A stretch of DNA of 64,000 bases from an uncultured Gammaproteobacteria bacterium (lineage in GTDB: Bacteria > Patescibacteriota > Microgenomatia > Levybacterales > GWA1-39-11). The notes beneath the pieces are model-generated. The model searched no databases. It was not told where the DNA came from and worked only from the letters and a program-made list of their open reading frames with translations. The stretch lies in the NCBI GenBank assembly GCA_964436385.1, contig CAYTCO010000002.1, positions 12,720 to 76,719 of the forward strand, given 5' to 3'. Every line of letters starts with the position of its first letter. Position 1 is the first letter of the stretch. Made by a program: the position numbers and the translations under genes. This document shows positions 6,938-50,231 of this stretch, piece after piece.

Positions 6938-8044
6938 ATGAATTTGTCTGTCGGGATAGTTGGGTTGCCAAATGTTGGCAAGTCCACTTTGTTTAATGCT
7001 TTGCTTAAAAAGCAGGCAGCACTTGCTGCAAATTATCCTTTTGCAACTATTGAGCCAAATGTTGGGATCGTTGCAGTTCCTGATGACAGACTTGCGGTTC
7101 TTGCAAACATCACAAAAGAAGAAGAGGGGATGACTGACCTTCCACCAATAAAGCCCGCAATGGTTGAATTCGTTGATATTGCAGGTCTTGTTAAGGGAGC
7201 CTCTGAAGGAGAGGGCCTTGGAAATAAATTTTTATCCCACATAAGAGAGGTAAAAGTAATAGCTCATGTTGTGAGGGTTTTTGAAGACGGAGATGTAATA
7301 AGAGAAGGAAGTGTGTCACCTCTTGATGACTACTTGACGATTCAAACCGAGCTTATCCTCTCCGATTTACAAACAATAGAAAATAGCAAAAAGAAAAAAG
7401 AAAAAAGCAAAGAAGAGCTTCTTGAAAGGATCGATAAAATGTTGAATGAAGGAATTCCTGCAAGAAAAATGGAATTTTCTGAAGAAGAGCTGGAGTTTGT
7501 TGACACCCTCTCTTTATTGAGTCGAAAGCCAGAAATAATAGTTTTGAATGTTTCCGAAAATGATTATTCAGAGTCAAAGTTTGAATCTATTATTAAAGAA
7601 TATTCTTCTCATCTCGTAAATAACCAATCACCAGCCACCAGTCATCAATTCGTTGTCGTTTCTGCAAAGATAGAGTCAGAGCTTGCTTCACTTGGCGAGG
7701 AAGACGCAAAGCATTATCTTTTAGAGTTAGGCGTTGAGAAGTCAGGTCTTGAAAGACTTATCCAAAAGGCTTATGAGAAATTGGGCCTCATGTCATTTTT
7801 AACATGCGGTGAAAAAGAGGTCAGGGCATGGACAGTAAAAATTGGCGCAACAGCCGTTGAGGCTGCTGGAGAGATACACACGGATTTTATGGCGAAATTT
7901 ATAAAAGCGGAAGTAGTTTCGTATGCTGATTTTGTTGGGCTGATTGGATGGAAGGGTGCAAGAGAAAAGGGTAAAGCCGGGCTTCAAGGAAAAGAATACA
8001 TAATGCACGACGGCGACGTAGTCGAATTTAAGATTGGTAGATAA
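6938..8044 (+). CDS. ychF: ribosome-binding ATPase YchF
   Basis: 368 aa. G1 motif GLPNVGKST, the typical YchF N-terminus and the TGS-like C-terminal end (MHDGDVVEFKIGR). Confidence 0.95.
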   Translation: MNLSVGIVGLPNVGKSTLFNALLKKQAALAANYPFATIEPNVGIVAVPDDRLAVLANITKEEEGMTDLPPIKPAMVEFVDIAGLVKGASEGEGLGNKFLSHIREVKVIAHVVRVFEDGDVIREGSVSPLDDYLTIQTELILSDLQTIENSKKKKEKSKEELLERIDKMLNEGIPARKMEFSEEELEFVDTLSLLSRKPEIIVLNVSENDYSESKFESIIKEYSSHLVNNQSPATSHQFVVVSAKIESELASLGEEDAKHYLLELGVEKSGLERLIQKAYEKLGLMSFLTCGEKEVRAWTVKIGATAVEAAGEIHTDFMAKFIKAEVVSYADFVGLIGWKGAREKGKAGLQGKEYIMHDGDVVEFKIGR

Positions 8045-8082: not shown

Positions 8083-8109
8083 GTTGTCGAATTTAAGATC
8101 GGGCGTTAG
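8083..8109 (+). pseudogene. ychF: 3' remnant of a second ychF allele (VVEFKIGR-stop)
   Basis: GTT GTC GAA TTT AAG ATC GGG CGT TAG encodes the same last 8 residues as the intact ychF (8018-8044). All five codon differences are silent. Confidence 0.6.
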
Positions 8110-8252
8110 TTATCGCTTTCCCCGTTGTGTTCAGGGTGCTTGCGATTATGTCTTGTGGCAACTTCATAAATCCCGACGCCTGCTGCGACAACTCCTACTG
8201 CTGCTACCTCAGCTATTGAGTGTAGGTTTTTGGAGTTAAAGACAGCTTCCAT
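8106..8252 (-). CDS. possible small membrane protein (48 aa)
   Basis: ATG-to-TAA ORF not in the supplied track: MEAVFNSKNLHSIAEVAAVGVVAAGVGIYEVATRHNRKHPEHNGESDN, with one hydrophobic helix. No clear RBS. Confidence 0.3.
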   Translation of the reverse strand: MEAVFNSKNLHSIAEVAAVGVVAAGVGIYEVATRHNRKHPEHNGESDN

Positions 8253-8359
8253 GGTTCTTGCAAAATTTCCCTTTGTGCTGCCTACTTCTGAGAATGCATG
8301 AACACCTTTGACTCATAACGCCTGATTCTAACAGAGGGTGGCCTTAAGTTCAAGGTTTT

Positions 8360-8368
8360 TGGTATAAT
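8360..8368 (+). promoter_or_regulatory. extended -10 promoter element (TGGTATAAT) for the 8377 ORF
   Basis: TG at 8360-8361 and TATAAT at 8363-8368. Only 8 nt separate the -10 box from the ATG at 8377, implying a leaderless or near-leaderless mRNA. Confidence 0.45.
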
Positions 8369-8376
8369 CCGCGAGT

Positions 8377-9159
8377 ATGAATGCAGAAAATACCCCCGAA
8401 ATACCGCAGGAAGATTTATTCCTTTCTAGAAATTACCCTGTAACTTTGAGTGTTTCAGCAGGCAATATGACAACTATAGTGTCATTAATTAAAGAAGCTG
8501 ATCCAACTAATTTTGATTTTGCAAAGAACGAGCATTTTAGAAACTGGAGTTCTTCAAGCATTATTATTGAAAAGGCGGTTGAAAATTCTGAAGGTAACCC
8601 TGGATTTACTGTTTCAATTTTGCCATCAGAAATAGAAGCGCTTGATAGAGTGCGAATCGATACATATTTTGCTGATGAAAGTGAGTCCGATAGCATGGTA
8701 GCCGTAATTGGTGAGCTCAAAGAAGATTACGACACTGTACTATTAAAAGTTAACCCTAAAGCAGAGCCATACTTTGAGAGCACAAAGGAAACCAGATTTC
8801 TGGTGAATGAAAATGTTGGTGAACTTATAAAAAAGACTTACAAAACCTACTTTGAGCTATTGGATGGCATGAATCCAACTGAAGAAGAAAAGAAGATGGT
8901 CGAATCATTTGCTAAAGCGTTGACGCAAATTGAGGGAAGAAAAGATGTTAATATTTGGATAGTTCTAACACAAGGGGACATGGAGAGGATAACGTCAGAA
9001 ATTTTTGAGCAGATGGCAATTTTGTCAAAAGAAAAACCCGACAGTATAGATTTGGAAGATTTTAGAATATCATTTAGGACTTTAGTCAATACATTTGTTA
9101 CGTGGGGTGGGAAAGAAACAAAGTCATACCGCGAATTTAAGCAATTGCAAAAAAAATAA
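8377..9159 (+). CDS. hypothetical acidic protein
   Basis: 260-aa ORF with a promoter-proximal ATG. No recognisable motif. Confidence 0.55.
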   Translation: MNAENTPEIPQEDLFLSRNYPVTLSVSAGNMTTIVSLIKEADPTNFDFAKNEHFRNWSSSSIIIEKAVENSEGNPGFTVSILPSEIEALDRVRIDTYFADESESDSMVAVIGELKEDYDTVLLKVNPKAEPYFESTKETRFLVNENVGELIKKTYKTYFELLDGMNPTEEEKKMVESFAKALTQIEGRKDVNIWIVLTQGDMERITSEIFEQMAILSKEKPDSIDLEDFRISFRTLVNTFVTWGGKETKSYREFKQLQKK

Positions 9160-31080: not shown

Positions 31081-31989
31081 TCACTTCTTTAAAAATAGGT
31101 GGAAGGGGTGCCAGTGAAATCTGCCCTCTGATTGAAAAATTCCCCATATAACCAGCACTGAGCCGATAACAAAAGCAGTGTCAGGGAATTCCCCCAGAAG
31201 AGGGGCTGCAATTAGTATAGTTACTACCGGATCCATGTAAGCAAAGACACTAACGTCGGCAGCCGTGAGGTACTTCAGTGCATAAGTCTGCATAAGATAT
31301 GCAACAAGCGTTGATAGAAAAACTCCGAATAGGAGCCCGATCAAGCCTTGAAAAGAGAGGTCATTCAAAAACCCAAAGTGTTCAACCTCCTTTGCAAACA
31401 TAGGAATGAATCCGACGCTTCCAATTACAAATGACCAGAATGTTATTGTTGCTGCGTTATTTCTCTTCATAACCTGCCTAACAAGAACTATAGAAATAGC
31501 AGCAGCAAGCATTGCAAAGACATAATAAAGATTTCCAATCGCAGCAATGTTCCCATTTTTAAAGAAGGGAAATATAAGAACCAATATCACTCCTAAGAGA
31601 CCTACCACTGATCCAATTACTAAATTTTTTCTTGGTTTTTCTTGCAAGAATAGAAGGGAGTAGAAGACAATAAATATTGGAGCCGAGCTCCCTATCAGAG
31701 CAGCATTTATGCTGGGGGACTGCATCAGACCCAGGAAAAAGAACGTTATATTGACAGTTATTCCCAAAAAACCAAGGACAACAAGCTTAAGTCTGTCTTT
31801 TGGGTGCACCCAAAGCTTAGTTCTAACGAAAGGGAACATTATGAGGGCGGGGAGTGCAAACCGCAGAAAAGCAAGAGTGAAAGGATGGATATCATCAAGT
31901 GCCCATTTGAAAATTGGAGGAGCAGCACCCCAAATCATATTGGCTGCAATAAGTGCAAGAACAGCAAGCTGGGATTTAGATAATTTCAT
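31081..31989 (-). CDS. EamA/DMT-family transporter
   Basis: 302 aa with about 10 hydrophobic helices and the duplicated EamA-like architecture. Confidence 0.8.
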   Translation of the reverse strand: MKLSKSQLAVLALIAANMIWGAAPPIFKWALDDIHPFTLAFLRFALPALIMFPFVRTKLWVHPKDRLKLVVLGFLGITVNITFFFLGLMQSPSINAALIGSSAPIFIVFYSLLFLQEKPRKNLVIGSVVGLLGVILVLIFPFFKNGNIAAIGNLYYVFAMLAAAISIVLVRQVMKRNNAATITFWSFVIGSVGFIPMFAKEVEHFGFLNDLSFQGLIGLLFGVFLSTLVAYLMQTYALKYLTAADVSVFAYMDPVVTILIAAPLLGEFPDTAFVIGSVLVIWGIFQSEGRFHWHPFHLFLKK

Positions 31990-32003: not shown

Positions 32004-32253
32004 AAAACGTTTCAGTCTGTTTGCGAGATATCTCCTGCCCATGCCACTTTTTAAGTATTTTTCTCGTGCTGTGGCATCTTATTTAGTGAGGCAGGCCTCA
32101 TAATATATTAGTTCATATGGTCCTTTATTGCGAGTATAAGTTGATTTGTTGTTTTGGTGTTCGGAGAAACGTTTTCGTAAATCGCTAGTGTAGCCTGTGT
32201 ACCATTTTTTTGTTGCTAAACTTCGTAGCAAGTAAATATAGTAGAATTTGTGG

Positions 32254-32269
32254 TTATCTTTAACGGAAT
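32254..32269. repeat. right copy of the perfect 16-bp inverted repeat (TTATCTTTAACGGAAT)
   Basis: Reverse complement of 31988-32003. It overlaps the hisS stop codon and GIY-YIG codons 2-6. Confidence 0.8.
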
Positions 32270-33432
32270 TCATTCGGCAGGTCTTCTAAAGATACGGTTT
32301 TTTTAACGATTTCGCCTGCCTGTGATTTCGTTCTTATCTCGACTTGGTTGTTTTCAAGAGGAATTGCAATGAATTTTATATTTTTTTTCTCTGCAAATTT
32401 AAATTGTTTGTCAATCTTCGAATTAAAGTCTAGATATAATTCTGCGTTAACTCCTTTTGCGCGAAGAACATTTACAATATTTGAAACCGTTTCTTGATTT
32501 TCGTTTTGATTGATAACAAGAAATCTCGAAGTTGTAAGATCCTTCGGAAACAAGTTATTTGCCTCCATTGCTTCAAGTAATCTATCAAATCCGAAAGCAA
32601 ATCCTACTGCGGGAATATCTTGCCCTGAGAACATACCAATTAATCCGTCATATCGACCGCCTCCACCAACCGAGCCAGCATCAAATCCTTCAATTTCGAC
32701 CTCAACTATAAGCCCAGTGTAATAATCCAATCCTCGAGCAAGTGTCGGTTCAAAGAAAACATAATTTTTTTGTGATCCAAGTATCTTTTCTAAATTTTCA
32801 GTAGGTTTTGAATTTCTGACTTTCTCAAGTAATCCCTCGTCAAGCCCTGCATTTCGAAGTTCAGACTTCACTCCCTCTTCGCCAATCTTTTTTAACTTAT
32901 CAATAATAATAATTGCCCGATTATCCATTCCCTCAAAGACATGTCTATCGTTAACCAAAACTTTAAAGTTTTGGAAGCCCAAAGTCGTCAGACACGAAAT
33001 TACTGTATATAGGACTTCATTGTCAGAAAGGTAGGAGTTGGTTCCTGCGATGTCTATATCGCATTGTAAAAATTCACGATATCGGCCTTTCTGAGTGTTC
33101 TCAGCTCTCCAAACATTTTGAATTTGGTATCTCTTGAATGGCATAGGGAGATCATTTGTGTATTGCGCTATGACACGAGATAGAGGGACGGTCTGGTCGT
33201 ATCTCATGGCAACATTTCGATCCCCGTTATCTTTGAAACGGTACATCAATTTGTCACCTTCTTCACCGTATTTACCCATTAGAATTTCCTCTAGCTCAAG
33301 AGCTGGTGTTTCTAGGGGTTCAAAACCATAAGATTCGAATACCTTTTTCAGGGTTTCTATTACATACTGGCGTTTTCGTGCTTCTTTTGGTAAGAAATCA
33401 CGAAACCCTTTTAATGTTTTTGGTTCAATCAT
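32260..33432 (-). CDS. hisS: histidyl-tRNA synthetase
   Basis: 390 aa. GFRDFLP, RYREFLQCDID, GGGRYDGL and a C-terminal anticodon-binding domain. Confidence 0.9.
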   Translation of the reverse strand: MIEPKTLKGFRDFLPKEARKRQYVIETLKKVFESYGFEPLETPALELEEILMGKYGEEGDKLMYRFKDNGDRNVAMRYDQTVPLSRVIAQYTNDLPMPFKRYQIQNVWRAENTQKGRYREFLQCDIDIAGTNSYLSDNEVLYTVISCLTTLGFQNFKVLVNDRHVFEGMDNRAIIIIDKLKKIGEEGVKSELRNAGLDEGLLEKVRNSKPTENLEKILGSQKNYVFFEPTLARGLDYYTGLIVEVEIEGFDAGSVGGGGRYDGLIGMFSGQDIPAVGFAFGFDRLLEAMEANNLFPKDLTTSRFLVINQNENQETVSNIVNVLRAKGVNAELYLDFNSKIDKQFKFAEKKNIKFIAIPLENNQVEIRTKSQAGEIVKKTVSLEDLPNEFR

Positions 33433-44750: not shown

Positions 44751-46742
44751 ATGCCTAAGTCGAATTCATCTAAATCTACCGAAGGTCATCCAAGGATTTT
44801 AATAATTCTCGTTATTCTCGTTGCAATAATTGGAGCGTTGTCTATTGCTTACGTTCTTTTCTCAAAGAACGGATACCTTACACAGAAAGTTGCAAGTATT
44901 CCAAAGATTACAAAGCCCTCACCTGATATGTCTCGTGCCCGTACGATGACAGTTGATCCTTCATCAGAAAATGTTATGCAGGTAACAACAAGAGAAAAAG
45001 TTGTCATCACTCTTACTATTCCAAAGGGAGCCATTGATAAAAAGCAAAACATAAAGATGATTCCATACTATTACAACGATAAAAGTGAGGACCCAAGCGC
45101 TGGTGTTATTTTAAGTCCCGGCAATCTTTCATTTAAGCAGCCAGTCACACTATTCTTTGATCTTTCCGATAGCAAGCTTAGAACAGATGGGCCTGAAAAT
45201 GTAGGAAAAATGGAAACCGTTAGGACAACAGGTACTTCACAAGTCCTGATGATAGATCAAAACGCATCTGAGCTGATACCTACTCTTGTTGCTCGAGAAG
45301 TTGAGACAAGTACTCAGCTTAGGGCTCGTATTTTAACCGGGGGTGGATACCTTTTTTCAGTAAATGGACGTGATCAGAAGAGATGGGCTGAGAATGCTAT
45401 GAAAAAGGAAAAGGTAAATTCACTCAGTATTCTTGAGGCGTCAAGGGTTCTTTTGTCTTCAGGTGTAAGTCTGGACAAGAAAGATCGAAGCAAGGCAAAC
45501 GCTGCAGCTGACAAAATTTTAGGTAAAAAACTTCCACCTCCGCATGAAATGGTTGCTGCATTATCTGTAAAAAAGCTTTTGTCAGACACAAAAACAAGTT
45601 TTAATTTGGTTCCCAAGGCATTAGCCCAAGAGGGTTACATTCCTGCAGCTTCATCAACACCTCGCCAAGTTATTGAATTGATGTGCAAGTCAAAGGGTTA
45701 TATGGTCGAAGACTATGTTGGGTTTGCTGCTGCTGCCGCAACTTATGGATACGGTGACCTTCGAGATAGATGCATGACGGTCGCGCTCAATAAAGCAGCG
45801 GATGATGCTCGCAAGCTTCTGGCGGATAAAAATGCAAGCATAAAGTCCATGCTTATTGGACTTAAGAACCTTCAATTCTTGGGGATTGATGAAGCCGATG
45901 CTCTTGGAGAAAAGCTTATGGAGAAGATTAAATGGAAGGCTGAGGATGAGGCAAAGAGGGTAGCATATGATATAGATTCAAAACCTGTGGAATTAGCAAC
46001 AGAGCTTCAGAAGTTGCAAACACTGGGAGTTGAAGGTGCAACTGCCGAAATATTGACTGAAAGGTTGGTTGAGATACTAGATGAGCAGGAGGCAAATATG
46101 CCAACTCCACCACCTGAAGATTACGAAGAGGAATCGGATTACAGCGAGGAGCAAATTCTTGTCGATCAGGCATGGACAATTATTGGAATTGAACTCCTCA
46201 AAGTTATGGGGATTACCGATATTAGCGAAGAGGGTCTTAAGGAGAAGTTCAAGGAAATGTCAGACAACACAACGTTGTTAAATGAAGCGGCATATGAGAT
46301 GTGCAAAGAGCTGGGCGGAGAGGATTGTGACAGTAATTACAATAAGGCAAAAAGTGATCTCGAGGATGCATTGGAAGAAGGGTACAGAGTTGCTGAAGAG
46401 ATAGGATCAGTTCAGAACAGCGAATATGAGGAGCCAGACTATGATGATGCTGGTGGGAATTATTATTTTGAGGAGGATTTGACTCCGACACCGGGAGATG
46501 GAGATTCTGAATCAATGGAGTGGGAATATGAAGATCCTTCAGATCAGTATGAGGATGATCATGTGCAGGAGGAGGAGAGCGAAGAAATATACATGATGGA
46601 ATCTCAAAGCACAGAAGAAGAGAGTGGATCGGAAGATGAAAGCGAGACAGAAAGCTCTGCCGAGGAAGAAGTTGAAGGTGCAAGTACATCAAATCCTATA
46701 CAAATCCTCATTCAGTACATTTCAAAAGTATTTAGCAACTAA
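44751..46742 (+). CDS. hypothetical membrane-anchored protein with a highly acidic C-terminus
   Basis: About 663 aa starting at MPKSNSS. One N-terminal TM helix and an E/D/S-rich tail. Confidence 0.5.
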   Translation: MPKSNSSKSTEGHPRILIILVILVAIIGALSIAYVLFSKNGYLTQKVASIPKITKPSPDMSRARTMTVDPSSENVMQVTTREKVVITLTIPKGAIDKKQNIKMIPYYYNDKSEDPSAGVILSPGNLSFKQPVTLFFDLSDSKLRTDGPENVGKMETVRTTGTSQVLMIDQNASELIPTLVAREVETSTQLRARILTGGGYLFSVNGRDQKRWAENAMKKEKVNSLSILEASRVLLSSGVSLDKKDRSKANAAADKILGKKLPPPHEMVAALSVKKLLSDTKTSFNLVPKALAQEGYIPAASSTPRQVIELMCKSKGYMVEDYVGFAAAAATYGYGDLRDRCMTVALNKAADDARKLLADKNASIKSMLIGLKNLQFLGIDEADALGEKLMEKIKWKAEDEAKRVAYDIDSKPVELATELQKLQTLGVEGATAEILTERLVEILDEQEANMPTPPPEDYEEESDYSEEQILVDQAWTIIGIELLKVMGITDISEEGLKEKFKEMSDNTTLLNEAAYEMCKELGGEDCDSNYNKAKSDLEDALEEGYRVAEEIGSVQNSEYEEPDYDDAGGNYYFEEDLTPTPGDGDSESMEWEYEDPSDQYEDDHVQEEESEEIYMMESQSTEEESGSEDESETESSAEEEVEGASTSNPIQILIQYISKVFSN

Positions 46743-46765
46743 TGCGGGAGTGAGTTTGATTCCTG

Positions 46766-47158
46766 CTAAACTTTAACCCCGCGTCTTTTTAGCTGCTTTG
46801 ACTTTTTCAATGAATGTTTTTCGCACCGGAATTCAGGATATCTATCTTTAGATTTGTCATAATTTGATGCTTGAACAAGTCTGTAGCCTCTACATAACTT
46901 TCCACAATCGACACATCTCACATTTTCTCGTACTTCCCACTGAGAGGAAAGACTTTTTGAGGTAAAGATAAAACTATCTACCCAGAAGAATATAAGTCCA
47001 CCGATGAAATTGGCAATAGTTGCAGCAACCCAGTCTTCAGTTGTCCCAAAAATTGAAGGGGAGTGCTTGAACCAAGCGACTATTGGTGCTAGTAGTGGGG
47101 TAGACAATTGCCAGCGGATTAGATAAAGAGCGTAGCGTTTGTAATTTACCTTTATCAT
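46766..47158 (-). CDS. hypothetical membrane protein with C-terminal Cys4 motif
   Basis: 130 aa with 2-3 TM helices followed by CVDCGKLC...CEKH. Confidence 0.45.
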   Translation of the reverse strand: MIKVNYKRYALYLIRWQLSTPLLAPIVAWFKHSPSIFGTTEDWVAATIANFIGGLIFFWVDSFIFTSKSLSSQWEVRENVRCVDCGKLCRGYRLVQASNYDKSKDRYPEFRCEKHSLKKSKQLKRRGVKV

Positions 47159-47205
47159 CTATTGGCTAATAACTATTGTCTAATAACTATCGACTAATTT
47201 AGATG

Positions 47206-47290
47206 TGCCGCGGGAGGGACTCGAACCCTCATGACCAAAAAAGATCATTAGTTTTTGAGACTAACCTGTATACCATTCCAGCACCGCGGC
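47206..47290 (-). tRNA. tRNA-Leu (anticodon CAA), class II with long variable arm
   Basis: Manual cloverleaf: acceptor GCCGCGG/CCGCGGC, D stem CTG/CAG with a GG loop, anticodon stem TTAGT/ACTAA with loop CTCAAAA, a 17-nt variable arm (TGATC-TTTTTT-GGTCA), T arm GAGGG-TTCGAGT-CCCTC and discriminator A. CCA is not encoded. Confidence 0.9.
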
Positions 47291-47292
47291 TT

Positions 47293-47541
47293 CTATTTTC
47301 CAAACAGATTCTTCTTCATCCAGCGGCGTCCTGCCGCAGATTTGAGATATCTTTCTCTTAACACGGATTCTTCTCTGGTTTCGAATAACTCTTTGTGAAT
47401 CAAAACCCAAGGTTTAAACTTCTTTGTAAACGAACTTTCACCTCGATTATGTTCCCATAAACTATTTTCCAAATTACTTGTATATCCAACATATGTTTTA
47501 TCTTTAAGTTTGCTTAATAAAATATACGTTATATATTTCAC
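47293..47541 (-). CDS. GIY-YIG nuclease-family protein (UPF0213-like), intact
   Basis: 82 aa with a GTG start. YILLSK...TYVGYTSNLENSLWEHN and RERYLKSAAGRRW. It starts inside the duplicated tRNA D-arm sequence. Confidence 0.75.
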   Translation of the reverse strand: MKYITYILLSKLKDKTYVGYTSNLENSLWEHNRGESSFTKKFKPWVLIHKELFETREESVLRERYLKSAAGRRWMKKNLFGK

Positions 47542-47603
47542 CTGTATACCATTTCCGCCTCGGCTCGTTTCACTCGCCTTGCGAGACGGGCCAGCACCGT
47601 GGC
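47541..47603 (-). pseudogene. decayed duplicate of the tRNA-Leu 5' half (acceptor 5' strand plus D arm) with a 37-nt insertion
   Basis: On the minus strand, GCCACGGTGCTGG, a 37-nt GC-rich insert and AATGGTATACAGG match tRNA positions 1-26 (GCCGCGGTGCTGGAATGGTATACAGG) with one mismatch. Confidence 0.75.
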
Positions 47604-47663
47604 GTTTGTCTTTTGAACTTATTTATTATAATATACTCAAGTCCTTTTCGCTAAGGTATTCAA

Positions 47664-50231
47664 ATGATTAAAAAGCAATCCTCATCAGTATTTCTGCCCA
47701 ACCATATTTTACCTAGCCATTACGATATTTTTCTAAGCCCAGATCTTGATAATTTTGTTTTCGAAGGCGAAGAGTCGATAAGTATTGAAGTTAAAAAACC
47801 TGAGTCATTAGTCCTTTTACATTGTGCTGAGATTGAGGTTCTGGAAGCGCTAGTTTTAGTTGGGAAGAGATTAATTTCTTCTAAGAAAATTTCTTACAGC
47901 AAAAAATCCGAAACGGTATCGATCACATTTTCATCAGTTATTCCAAAAGGAAAAGCAAAAATAAAACTTAAATTTGCAGGTATTCTTAACGACAAAATGA
48001 GAGGATTTTACAGAAGCCGCTACGAGCACGAAGGTAAGACGTATCATATGGGTGTTACTCAATTTGAATCAACAGATGCCAGAAGGGCTTTCCCATGCTT
48101 TGACGAACCGGCAAAAAAAGCTACGTTTGACGTTTCATTAAGAGTGCCATTTGATAGAACTGTTATTTCAAACACATTGGAAGAAGAGGTTGTCGAGCAT
48201 GAAGGTGGTTATAAAGTGGTCAAATTTGAACGTTCACCAAAAATGTCTAGCTATTTACTCGCCTTCATAATTGGTCATTTTGAATACGTTGAGAAGACAA
48301 CAAAAGAAGGGGTTAAAGTCAGGGTGTACGTTACTCCCGGAAAGAAGCACCAGGCTAAATTTGCATTAGAGGTGGCGGTTAAGGTAATGAGTTTTTACCA
48401 CAATTACTTTGGAATTGCTTATCCACTTCCGACAATGGATCTGATAGCAATTCCAGATTTTGCTAATGGAGCGATGGAAAATTGGGGAGCCGTAACATAC
48501 AGGGAATCGGCATTACTTTTTGACGAGGATCATTCATCCCTTCACACGAAGCAGTGGGTTGCAATAATTATTGCGCATGAACTTGCTCATCAGTGGTTTG
48601 GCAATTTAGTAACGATGAAGTGGTGGACTCATCTTTGGTTGAATGAGGGATTTGCATCGTTCATGGAGTATGTTGCGGTTGACAAGCTTTTTCCAGAATG
48701 GAATATTTGGACACAATTTGCCTTTACAGAACAAGCAAAGGCTTTATCTTTGGATGGTATGACGAATACTCATGCAATTGAGATTCCCGTACATCATCCT
48801 GGTGAGATAAGTGAAATCTTTGATGCGGTTTCGTATTCAAAAGGAGCCTCGGTTATTAAAATGCTTCAGGACTATATAGGTGAGGAAAATTTTCAAAAAG
48901 GCCTTCAGGTGTATCTTAAAAAGCACCAATATGACAATGCCGAAACTGAGGATTTATGGCGTGCATTGCAGAAGACTTCAAAAAAGCCAGTCGAGAAAAT
49001 TATGAAGAATTGGACATCAAACCCTGGATACCCATTGTTAACCTTAAGTAAAAAGAAGGATAAGCTAATGATTTCTCAGGAAAGATTCTATTCAAGTATT
49101 TCAAAGAAGAATAGGAAGGGTGAAAAATGGTTGGTTCCCATATCAATTATTTCAGATGATACTAAAAAGGAGATTAGTTTGCTTGTTGATCATGAAGCAA
49201 AAACAATTGATGGATTTTCAAAAAGTTCATGGATTAAGGTTAACTCAAATGACACAAGTTTTGTTAGGGTTAAGTATCCATTAGAACTTGCTGTTACCTT
49301 AGAAAAACCAATCAGGGAACTAGATCAGAAGTTGGGAGAAGTGGGGAGATTTGCTTTGGTGAGAGATGCTTTTGCTTTAGTTGAAGGTGGCTATGGCCGT
49401 TCAGATGAAGCCTTAAGATTGTTGTCCTATTACAATGATGAAAATAGTTACATTATTTGGGCAGAAATTGTAACTCACCTCTTGGAATATAAGAATTTAC
49501 TTTCAAATCAGAACACAAGTAAGATGTTTGATAATTTTTCCTTAAAACTGCTTTCTGGTATTGCCGAAAGAGTGGGAAGTGCAAAGAGCAAAGGCGAAAC
49601 TCATGAACAGACTTTACTTAGAAGCACTGTATTATTTGCTTTTGGTGCCTTTGGTGATAAAAAAACAATTGATTTTGCAAAGAAATTGTTTGTTGCTGCG
49701 ATGGCGGGTAGGAAAATTGATTCTGATTTAAAGTCGGCCTCATATGCATTAGTGGCTTTGTATGGTGGAAAAGTCGAGTTTGAGAAGTTATTGGATATTT
49801 ACTTAAAGATTGGATCTGAAGAGGAGAAAGACAGGGCTCTTCGCGCCATGTGCTCATTTTCAGACAGAAAGTTTTTGAAGAGAGTCTTGATGATAGGTTT
49901 TTCAAAAGATGTTAGGGCTCAGGATGCATTTAAGGTTGTGTATCTTATGTCAGGTAATCCGAAAGCTATAGATTTGGTTTGGGAGTATTTGAAGGAACAT
50001 TGGGAGGAGGTAGTCGAGAGATTTGCAGGTGGACACCTTTTCTCAAGGTTTATCTCACCTTTTTCAAAATTTACGAGTTACGAAAAAGCTGATGAGGTGG
50101 AGCAATTTTTCAAGAAACACAAACAAGAAGGTGTGGAAAGAACTTTAGCACAAACACTTGAAAAAATTCGATCAAATGCAGCACTTCTTGAAAGAGATGG
50201 GAAGTTGATCGAGAATTTGCTAAAAGGCTAA
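47664..50231 (+). CDS. pepN: M1-family aminopeptidase N
   Basis: 855 aa. GAMENWG, HELAHQWFGNLVT...WLNEG (HExxH+E) and a C-terminal ERAP1-like helical domain. Confidence 0.9.
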   Translation: MIKKQSSSVFLPNHILPSHYDIFLSPDLDNFVFEGEESISIEVKKPESLVLLHCAEIEVLEALVLVGKRLISSKKISYSKKSETVSITFSSVIPKGKAKIKLKFAGILNDKMRGFYRSRYEHEGKTYHMGVTQFESTDARRAFPCFDEPAKKATFDVSLRVPFDRTVISNTLEEEVVEHEGGYKVVKFERSPKMSSYLLAFIIGHFEYVEKTTKEGVKVRVYVTPGKKHQAKFALEVAVKVMSFYHNYFGIAYPLPTMDLIAIPDFANGAMENWGAVTYRESALLFDEDHSSLHTKQWVAIIIAHELAHQWFGNLVTMKWWTHLWLNEGFASFMEYVAVDKLFPEWNIWTQFAFTEQAKALSLDGMTNTHAIEIPVHHPGEISEIFDAVSYSKGASVIKMLQDYIGEENFQKGLQVYLKKHQYDNAETEDLWRALQKTSKKPVEKIMKNWTSNPGYPLLTLSKKKDKLMISQERFYSSISKKNRKGEKWLVPISIISDDTKKEISLLVDHEAKTIDGFSKSSWIKVNSNDTSFVRVKYPLELAVTLEKPIRELDQKLGEVGRFALVRDAFALVEGGYGRSDEALRLLSYYNDENSYIIWAEIVTHLLEYKNLLSNQNTSKMFDNFSLKLLSGIAERVGSAKSKGETHEQTLLRSTVLFAFGAFGDKKTIDFAKKLFVAAMAGRKIDSDLKSASYALVALYGGKVEFEKLLDIYLKIGSEEEKDRALRAMCSFSDRKFLKRVLMIGFSKDVRAQDAFKVVYLMSGNPKAIDLVWEYLKEHWEEVVERFAGGHLFSRFISPFSKFTSYEKADEVEQFFKKHKQEGVERTLAQTLEKIRSNAALLERDGKLIENLLKG

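Follow-up and report, generated by a model that had tools for sequence, protein, structure and literature searches.

A selfish GIY-YIG nuclease cassette very probably invaded, and regenerated, a tRNA-Leu(CAA) gene in a patescibacterial genome

The window described here is a 64-kb stretch of DNA (64,000 nucleotides of contig CAYTCO010000002.1) whose tRNA inventory consists of tRNA-Leu(CAA) alone. This gene has very probably been invaded by a selfish cassette of about 313 nucleotides (nt), which carries an open reading frame (ORF) for a small GIY-YIG nuclease and which regenerated the tRNA on entering it. All coordinates refer to the window and the element is read on the minus strand, on which a conserved, AT-rich leader is followed by tRNA nt 1-13, a 37-nt palindrome, tRNA nt 14-27, the ORF, a spacer of 2 nt (AA) between the stop codon and the tRNA start, and the complete tRNA-Leu(CAA). 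The tRNA fragment that lies upstream of the ORF and is split by the palindrome is called the orphan. Loci used for comparison carry L numbers. The parts of the element, beginning with the complete tRNA, are as follows.

47205..47290, minus strand: complete tRNA-Leu(CAA), the functional copy (ARAGORN; Rfam RF00005, 57.7 bits, E=1.6e-11, full length)
47293..47541, minus strand: GIY-YIG ORF of 82 amino acid residues, with a GTG start at 47541 and the end of the stop codon at 47293 (Pfam PF01541, E=1.5e-13)
47540..47553, minus strand: distal part of the orphan, a copy of tRNA nt 14-27, AATGGTATACAGGT (exact 14-mer)
47554..47590, minus strand: GC-rich imperfect palindrome of 37 nt in the orphan D-loop, CCCGTCTCGCAAGGCGAGTGAAACGAGCCGAGGCGGA (from the sequence)
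47591..47603, minus strand: proximal part of the orphan, the original tRNA nt 1-13, GCCACGGTGCTGG, with A4 for G4 (13-mer, one mismatch)
47604..47650, minus strand: native tRNA leader and putative promoter, TTGAGTATATTATAATAAATAAGTTCAAAAGACAAAC (near-identical leader in L170)

The GTG start codon of the ORF shares bases with orphan nt 26-27, and the distal orphan as read at 47553-47540 is AATGGTATACAGG(T). An initial annotation of this DNA had placed these parts at the same positions and had reported that the first 26 nt of the tRNA are present twice. Both points are confirmed by the sequence and by shuffling: AATGGTATACAGGT has two exact copies in the 64 kb and GCCGCGGTGCTGG has two copies with at most one mismatch, whereas the number expected from 100 shuffles is 0 in each case. 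The tRNA models that the annotation had suggested running on both copies gave a divided answer. The complete tRNA was called by both ARAGORN and Rfam, but the half-copy was not detected by the Rfam tRNA model even at E<=10. A fragment of 27 nt with 37 nt inserted into it would be expected to escape the model, and the miss does not refute the duplication. The 63-nt region comprising the orphan and the palindrome, folded alone as DNA, is unexceptional (-10.2 kcal/mol, z=-0.64). A single fold is thus not significant, and the case for a hairpin rests on the comparison among loci.

The neighbouring gene for an M1 aminopeptidase puts the host among the Levybacteria-like Patescibacteria. Four relatives (L170, L171, L173 and L174) have the peptidase gene, with 67-76% identity in the protein, and tRNA-Leu(CAA) in the same divergent arrangement. 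In all four the tRNA gene is uninterrupted, and the half-copy, the palindrome or any GC-rich insert and the ORF are missing. The window and a sister strain with an identical peptidase (L172) are filled, which makes the conserved site polymorphic for the presence or absence of the cassette. The comparison of relatives with and without the ORF had been set beforehand as the refuting test for an insertion, and in these four relatives the half-copy is missing along with the ORF. The leader of L170, TTGAGTATATTATAATAAATAAGTTCAAAAGACAA, is almost identical to that of the window and continues directly into the uninterrupted tRNA-Leu(CAA), whose nt 1-45 and two acceptor strands are identical to those of the window tRNA. 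Hence the tRNA fragment that precedes the ORF in the window is the gene's original 5' end, still attached to the native leader, rather than the decayed duplicate that it had at first been taken for. The four empty relatives support the proposal of a GIY-YIG element that invaded the tRNA gene while keeping the tRNA intact, and the comparison supports a gain of about 313 nt in the window lineage. The point of insertion had been placed after the D arm; the informative boundary is the palindrome in the D-loop, between nt 13 and 14.

The sister strain L172 has a perfect orphan (G4) and the arginine codon AGG at position 27 of the ORF. Hence A4 in the window is a recent point mutation. Judged by the replacement of Arg27 by Ser and by the one mutation in its orphan, the window copy is young and starting to decay.

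One more sequence, L001 (ENA ERZ25038552, 529 nt, 0.73x coverage), has the sequence of the window from the orphan across the ORF as far as tRNA nt 45. Beyond that point, the variable arm, the T-arm and the 3' strand of the acceptor (CTCGCCC) are those of the tRNA-Leu(CAA) found in L171 and L173, so that the acceptor stem of L001 is unpaired. The acceptor stem of the L171/L173 type is GGGCGAG/CTCGCCC, and a 39-nt stretch is identical in both tRNA types. A genuine L001 would mean that the element had newly entered a diverged allele. This was rejected, since an assembly chimera through the shared 39 nt is the simpler reading and probably the correct one. At the empty locus L174, the 3' end of the tRNA together with 30 nt of flanking sequence forms a direct repeat 3' of tRNA-Leu(CAA) at about 1215-1300 on the minus strand (CGAGTCCCTCCCGCGGCACACTGAATAATCATGACTCGCTGCAAGGCTAA twice, with the spacer CGCCCGCAGAC); it may be the scar of a 3'-type (see below) or integrase-type element.

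The 37-nt insert had been described as a sign of decay or disruption of the half-copy. Instead, it belongs to a conserved family of palindromes that are found in the same position at dozens of homologous loci, among them L002, L003, L008, L010, L012, L013, L067, L072 and others. The family has the consensus CC[CT]GCC...GGC[AG]GG, a length usually of 28-40 nt (mode 32) and preferred positions in the tRNA sequence after nt 8-11, 13, 16-18 or 22. The motif is present in 58 of 78 regions upstream of the ORFs compared to 29 of 4034 control windows (0.7%), and the palindrome regions have a median folding z-score of -3.1. In the window, the outer stem is formed by CCGTCTCG and CGAGGCGG, and CTCGC-AAG-GCGAG lies inside. 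The palindrome is the single such motif in the 64 kb and has the subtype of the palindromes of L013 and L072.

The palindromes of L033 and L035 occupy the same site and are exact reverse complements of each other except for 1 nt, a relationship referred to here as flip/flop. The two forms of the Patescibacteria palindrome, 1 and 2, are likewise reverse complements. The presence of both orientations in close relatives points to an element that exists at the DNA level. The orthologous loci L022 and L030 have ORFs that are 90% identical and palindromes that differ in type and in position, and some orphans contain two or three palindromes (L031, L059, L113 and L158). The reverse-complement pairs and the difference between L022 and L030 favour a DNA-level element whose turnover would be faster than that of the ORF. 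They would also fit a cruciform that has been cut and rejoined, possibly by the adjacent nuclease, which is of a structure-specific type. Further flip/flop pairs, which include the bulge and the loop, were seen upstream of the ORF in L050 compared to L087 and in L002 compared to L049. Two other roles were considered and rejected. The palindrome has no T-run as a terminator would, and termination there would block expression of the tRNA; the GAGG of its 3' arm is 17-22 nt away from the start codon, which does not suit a Shine-Dalgarno sequence.

The cassette belongs to a family that is spread over many tRNA genes. Proteins 48-64% identical to the product of the ORF are encoded in unrelated neighbourhoods, always 2 nt upstream of a tRNA-Leu gene or overlapping it, and are preceded by the 5' part of the same tRNA, split by a hairpin with conserved ends (GG followed by CCCGCCTCG...CGAGGCGGG). 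A scan of one genome per species for the family motif [FL]KSA[AT]GRRW confirmed 129 loci, 80 of which were fetched for analysis. The ORF runs straight into a tRNA on the same strand in 64 of the 80, and another 5-7 have a mirror layout. The tRNAs are Ala(GGC) in 20 loci, Arg(TCG) in 17, Arg(ACG) in 15 and Leu in 8, the others being Met, Gln and Asn. Besides Patescibacteria, the carriers include many Flavobacteriaceae and other Bacteroidota, as well as a few metagenome-assembled genomes (MAGs) with other labels. The stop codon of the ORF is often the tRNA's own U8-A9-G10. In most flavobacterial copies it lies inside the tRNA, at nt 8-10 or 21-23 (for example, in L017 at 2498-2755 and in L033 at 2495-2740). 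Cleavage by RNase P at such loci would leave a non-stop mRNA and could hold the level of the nuclease low.

The type of the orphan follows that of the local tRNA (Leu, Arg, Ala, Met, Gln or Asn), and the orphan is always interrupted by a palindrome. Its left segment is identical to the real tRNA at 720 of 736 nt and perfect in 42 of 54 loci, figures that are biased upward because the search criterion favours matches. The length of the orphan ranges from about 20 to 60 nt, and an orphan is altogether missing from L085. Units are repeated in tandem, two to four times, in L015, L022, L023, L031, L032, L048, L061, L075 and L103, and a remnant without an ORF in L049. The array of L015 (2441-3752) consists of up to four near-identical units of orphan, palindrome and ORF with a period of 315 nt in front of one tRNA, whereas the related L016 has a single unit. 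Copy number thus changes quickly, perhaps via unequal recombination between the orphan and the 5' end of the tRNA. In the mirror layout, or 3' type, an intact tRNA with its terminator is followed by the ORF and then by a 3' tRNA fragment that is interrupted by a palindrome in the T-arm or the anticodon loop (L029, L040, L043, L056, L074, L078, L079 and L121). A second copy of the terminator accompanies the 3' fragment in this type. Furthermore, L078 has one palindrome in three tandem copies and L121 has three ORFs downstream of the tRNA.

Several loci give hints as to where the incoming DNA would begin. L084 and L085 are from the same MAG; their ORFs are 99.6% identical, and the identity starts exactly at the palindrome. 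In L017, orphan nt 1-22 have a D-arm of the GCTC type, which is canonical and occurs in some empty alleles, whereas both the stretch beyond the palindrome and the functional tRNA have the GCGC type. Such a switch is expected if the palindrome is the junction between resident and imported DNA. In L016, the acceptor strand of the orphan differs from that of the functional tRNA, whose own stem pairs perfectly. The mismatches between orphan and tRNA in L017 and L016 are of the kind that would be left by a break repaired from a filled donor. The orphans of L086 and L105 each match the tRNA at 22 of 22 nt despite a synonymous divergence (dS) of about 0.43 between the ORFs, and could be young through repeated homing, homogenised by conversion, or functional.

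A second polymorphic site supports the view that the parts travel as a unit. The conserved ftsZ-yqeY-tRNA-Arg(TCG) locus is a frequent site of the element in Flavobacteriaceae, and a metagenome scan with YqeY returned 80 contigs. About 58 of these are empty, having an AT-rich spacer of 9-102 nt between yqeY and the tRNA without orphan, GC palindrome or ORF. A minority is filled with 1-3 units (L103, L105, L116, L121, L126 and L158), the ORF is decayed in L113 and L163, and L145 is a remnant without an ORF. The empty L106 and the filled L103 share the same flank up to the tRNA. Comparison of empty and filled contigs thus indicates that orphan, palindrome and ORF come and go together.

Across L090-L169 and L015-L088, the tRNA-Arg(TCG) gene has two main alleles, which differ in the D-stem and the T-loop: GTTC/GAAT with TTCGAATCC and GCGC/GCGC with TTTGAATCC. 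The GCGC ('type II') allele is present in 16 of 21 filled loci compared to 15 of 67 others, in a comparison that is not phylogenetically controlled. This excess is suggestive of hitch-hiking or of a target preference. About six of the 15 non-filled type II loci carry remnants, decayed ORFs or 3'-type arrays. In L097, L113, L117 and L146, an unrelated ORF for 107 residues lies between yqeY and tRNA-Arg, which is missing in other contigs. By eye, its product resembles a zinc-finger protein of the DksA/TraR type, with two pairs of Cys near the C-terminus.

The protein encoded in the window matches Pfam PF01541 with 51.2 bits (cut-off 22.6), its residues 2-76 covering profile positions 1-76 of 78. 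A search of the PDB with the family profile matched 1ywl (E=2e-11), 1zg2 (2.7e-9) and SLX1 (4e-4); neither UvrC nor I-TevI was among the matches. The protein consists of the catalytic domain and a basic tail of about 12 residues, with no accessory domain, and is predicted to be a minimal single-domain nuclease of the Slx1/UPF0213 (COG2827) kind. The subfamily is distinguished by the C-terminal motif KSAAGRRW(M/R)KxN and by a near-obligate linkage to tRNA genes. Between related loci, the ratio of nonsynonymous to synonymous substitution rates (dN/dS) of the ORF is 0.08-0.23 at dS up to 0.55, which indicates that the protein is kept functional. Residues Y6, Y17, G19, H31 and E63, which are the 'GIY' and 'YIG' tyrosines, the glycine, the histidine and the metal-binding glutamate, are invariant in the alignment and kept in the window protein. 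Residue 27 is Arg in at least 90% of the family alignment, and the window codon is AGT (Ser). This arginine we take to be the catalytic one in helix 1, equivalent to R27 of I-TevI. The window copy is a family member by descent but is probably catalytically impaired.

Searches of annotation resources gave little beyond the Pfam domain. No NCBIfam model scored above its cut-off, TIGR01453 (group I intron endonuclease) matching two homologs weakly and below threshold; the matches in PADLOC were all marginal (E of about 0.008) and to one homolog; and a family-profile search of IMG/VR viral contigs found no relative. A second ORF of the same GIY-YIG family is located in the window at 32013-32273 on the minus strand. 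It has 39% identity to the first and the motif KSGMGRRYL, and is probably a pseudogene because of an in-frame TAA. There is no adjacent tRNA; the ORF overlaps hisS (32260-33432) and the gene of an EamA transporter (31081-31989) and lies between the arms of a perfect inverted repeat of 16 nt, ATTCCGTTAAAGATAA / TTATCTTTAACGGAAT; the hisS stop codon is part of the left arm. The initial annotation had also cited ychF (6938-8044, plus strand, and 8084-9159; an ORF for 260 residues lies downstream) as a parallel case. No relative of the window GIY-YIG protein was found at the ychF locus by tblastn.

The proposed course of events is as follows. An empty tRNA gene would be broken near the position of the palindrome, and the break would be repaired from a filled allele, whereby the palindrome, the ORF and the donor tRNA would be copied in. 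The resident 5' end (nt 1-13) would stay on its native leader as the orphan, the DNA beyond the palindrome would be imported, and a complete tRNA would follow the ORF. With a complete tRNA downstream of the ORF, the host keeps a working tRNA. The ORF would have neither a promoter nor a terminator of its own, and would most likely be transcribed from the promoter of the tRNA, forming an extended 5' leader on the pre-tRNA; a cut by RNase P at tRNA +1 would then free the tRNA. The leader at 47604..47650 is the presumed tRNA promoter. TATAAT boxes are located upstream of the orphan in L002, L003 and L008 at the corresponding position; a consensus scan called no sigma-70 promoter at the leader, and a terminator scan found no terminator between the leader and the tRNA.

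This explanation as a whole, comprising layout, expression, family membership, spread by homing and the palindrome as boundary, is likely, if less secure than the invasion itself. Its component of nuclease-initiated recombinational repair, that is homing with co-conversion, has about an even chance of being correct. The roles that might be assigned to the palindrome are tentative at best: it may mark the boundary of the element and be cut by the nuclease as a cruciform, it may shield the orphan from cutting, or it may break up a direct repeat that would otherwise delete the ORF. Two other routes of insertion were rejected. A target-site duplication by a staggered cut does not suit a palindrome inside the left repeat or a repeat length of 20 to 60 nt. 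Integration of a circle of the Campbell type yields the 5'-type layout, but neither multiple palindromes nor palindromes regenerated at new tRNA types.

A number of points weigh against this explanation. Cleavage, its target, co-transcription and release by RNase P are all steps that we infer. The window copy is without the catalytic arginine and may be inactive. At 82 residues, the protein has no DNA-binding domain of the sort that gives known homing endonucleases, such as I-TevI and the Seg proteins, their long recognition sites. The window tRNA is identical to the empty L170 allele at nt 1-45, and a target in the D-arm would give the filled allele no evident escape. The strong purifying selection, seen at dS of about 0.4, would also fit a role that benefits the host, and the type II excess in filled loci lacks phylogenetic control. 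Finally, simple homing accounts neither for the origin of palindromes at new tRNA types nor for orphans that contain two or three of them (L031, L113 and L158).

A more radical variant we consider improbable. The nuclease would be directed by nucleic-acid structure instead of a DNA-binding domain in the protein, and the palindrome would be a mobile piece that the nuclease inserts. The preferred positions of insertion in tRNA-derived DNA would be nt 8-11, 16-18, 22, 31/32 and the T-loop, which lie partly in loops or at helix junctions. In one version, the bulged palindrome would serve as a handle for the protein, and its tRNA-derived arms, as RNA or as extruded DNA, would be the guide. In another version, single-stranded tRNA genes would be recognised by their cloverleaf-like folding. 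If true, this would constitute a new mechanistic class of bacterial mobile element, able to re-target to any tRNA gene.

It is no more probable that the module acts as RNA. The orphan arms and the hairpin would then form a functional RNA, either a guide for the nuclease, pairing with tRNA-gene DNA or with pre-tRNA, or a control structure in the 5' untranslated region, governing expression of the ORF or processing of the pre-tRNA. The orphan does precede the ORF on its 5' side, in the same orientation and directly after the tRNA leader, and the nuclease itself lacks a recognition domain. The near-perfect match of orphans to tRNAs, maintained even at the divergence of the L086 and L105 ORFs, is unlike the behaviour of freely decaying pseudogene pieces. 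However, recent insertion or gene conversion from the adjacent tRNA also explains this identity. At one and the same site the hairpin is found in either orientation, and it varies in position and number; the orphan is anything from about 20 to 60 nt long, lies 3' of the ORF in the mirror layout and is missing in L085. Furthermore, a search with Rfam at permissive thresholds, covering the window region and 13 related loci, found tRNAs only and no other RNA family.

Equally doubtful is a nuclease in the service of the host. An Slx1-like enzyme would act at tRNA genes, for example on stalled forks or R-loops, and the duplications and palindromes would be by-products of repair. The low dN/dS and the kinship to the structure-specific nuclease SLX1 agree with such a role, and unequal recombination alone could produce the tandem amplification. 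Against it, close relatives differ at each of two independent loci in whether they carry the cassette, in a patchy pattern, the ORF is decayed in L113 and L163 or missing from the remnants L049 and L145, and the window copy has lost the catalytic arginine. The palindrome is conserved across phyla, which suggests inheritance together with the element rather than scars of repair that arise de novo, and near-identical copies are present at two places in one MAG.

That the gene is an interrupted or split tRNA is very improbable. On this reading, nucleotides 1-13 are the 5' exon, and an intron (of group I, group II or the bulge-helix-bulge type) with a homing endonuclease ORF extends from there to nt 13 of the downstream copy. 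Splicing at 13/14 would yield the same mature tRNA, and group I introns are common in the tRNA genes of Patescibacteria (PMC13011429). However, no intron ribozyme was found at E<=10 by Rfam in the window region 46700-48000, nor was one found in the 13 related loci, and the complete downstream tRNA has its own 5' end, so that splicing is unneeded. The orphan varies in length and can be missing. The introns of that survey are almost all in the anticodon loop, and the survey reports no GIY-YIG genes for the homing endonucleases that they encode (PMC13011429). Lastly, chance similarity, or an ordinary decaying local duplication beside an unrelated ORF, would accommodate the insignificant single-sequence fold and the half-copy unseen by the Rfam tRNA model, but is refuted by the zero repeats expected in shuffled sequence, by the recurrence of the architecture at dozens of loci with different tRNAs and by the conservation of the palindrome.

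If the preferred reading, a selfish cassette that invades tRNA genes, is right, a compact nuclease parasite of bacterial tRNA genes has gone unnoticed, although its hosts include Patescibacteria, with their tiny genomes, and Flavobacteriaceae that are common in the sea. It would spare its host by rebuilding the tRNA and would borrow the promoter of the tRNA. The cassette would explain many small 'GIY-YIG domain' ORFs and odd tRNA fragments beside tRNAs, and would provide a rule for their annotation. Since filled and empty alleles exist in cultivable Flavobacteriaceae, the mechanism is directly testable. The findings also bear on how a nuclease of 80 residues finds its target, on the function of Slx1/UPF0213 proteins and on the origin and movement of palindromes.

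The arrangement has no description in Rfam 15, NCBIfam or PADLOC, and none was found in open-access papers and bioRxiv, although an earlier description elsewhere is possible. Neither the arrangement nor GIY-YIG genes are mentioned in the 2026 survey of Patescibacteria tRNA introns (PMC13011429). The 2006 survey that covers the minimal prokaryotic Slx1-like branch gives a fusion to the tRNA Gm18 methyltransferase as the sole hint of a link to RNA and does not mention linkage to tRNA genes (PMC1564403). Within the searchable literature, the cassette family thus appears to be undescribed.

Among the known systems, SLX1 and UPF0213/YhbQ (COG2827; 1ywl and 1zg2; PMC1564403) are the closest relatives in sequence and are of the same minimal single-domain type. 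SLX1 cuts branched or stem-loop DNA (PMC1564403). The cassette proteins differ from these in their own C-terminal motif and in the near-obligate link to tRNA genes.

A parallel in position is phage T4 SegB (PMC2330249), which is likewise encoded by a GIY-YIG gene among tRNA genes and outside introns. The segB gene reportedly spreads through cleavage of alleles without it and co-conversion of the neighbouring tRNA region. SegB is a larger phage protein, whereas the cassette encodes a minimal domain of the Slx1/UPF0213 type, 82 residues long, in a bacterial chromosome. In the cassette, moreover, the ORF lies inside a tRNA gene, the tRNA is regenerated and the orphan is marked by a conserved palindrome.

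In Allomyces, an endonuclease ORF associated with a partial duplication of atp6 was reportedly described by Paquin and colleagues in 1994. The same logic applies to the free-standing GIY-YIG and LAGLIDADG ORFs of fungal mitochondria, which are accompanied by partial C-terminal duplications of atp6 or cob (PMC6279837): the ORF is located at the end of an essential gene, one intact copy is kept and a left-over fragment lies beyond the ORF. The fungal targets are protein-coding genes of an organelle and the nucleases are larger. The targets of the cassette are bacterial tRNA genes, of which either the 5' or the 3' part is duplicated, and the GC-rich palindrome is obligatory. Integrative elements that target tRNA genes by means of a tyrosine integrase, with the tRNA 3' end in attP, also regenerate the tRNA and leave a partial repeat at the far end. 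The cassette differs in having no integrase, a size of about 313 nt, a duplication that is usually of the 5' part and a repeat that is split by a palindrome. No recombinase gene is present in the 313-nt insert, which contains a single GIY-YIG ORF and the repeat of the 5' end.

As palindromic mobile or repeat DNA, the fungal double-hairpin elements and the bacterial REP/RAYT systems are comparable to the hairpin of the cassette. The GC clusters of yeast mitochondria (PMC4478555) are short GC-rich imperfect palindromes in AT-rich DNA that behave like insertions, and they share with the cassette palindrome local multiplication and occurrence in both orientations. Unlike such repeats, the cassette palindrome is not dispersed, with one copy in 64 kb, and is tied to the GIY-YIG ORF and to tRNA-derived sequence. 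No ORF for an HUH/Y1 or tyrosine transposase is present at the locus, which sets it apart from IS200/IS605 and from REP/RAYT; with its two orientations and single copy in 64 kb, the hairpin is neither strand-specific nor dispersed as are those of IS200/IS605 and REP. From the integrative elements, the fungal ORFs and SegB, the cassette differs in its minimal Slx1-type nuclease, its many kinds of tRNA target on bacterial chromosomes, its two mirror layouts and its obligatory, conserved flip-flop palindrome.

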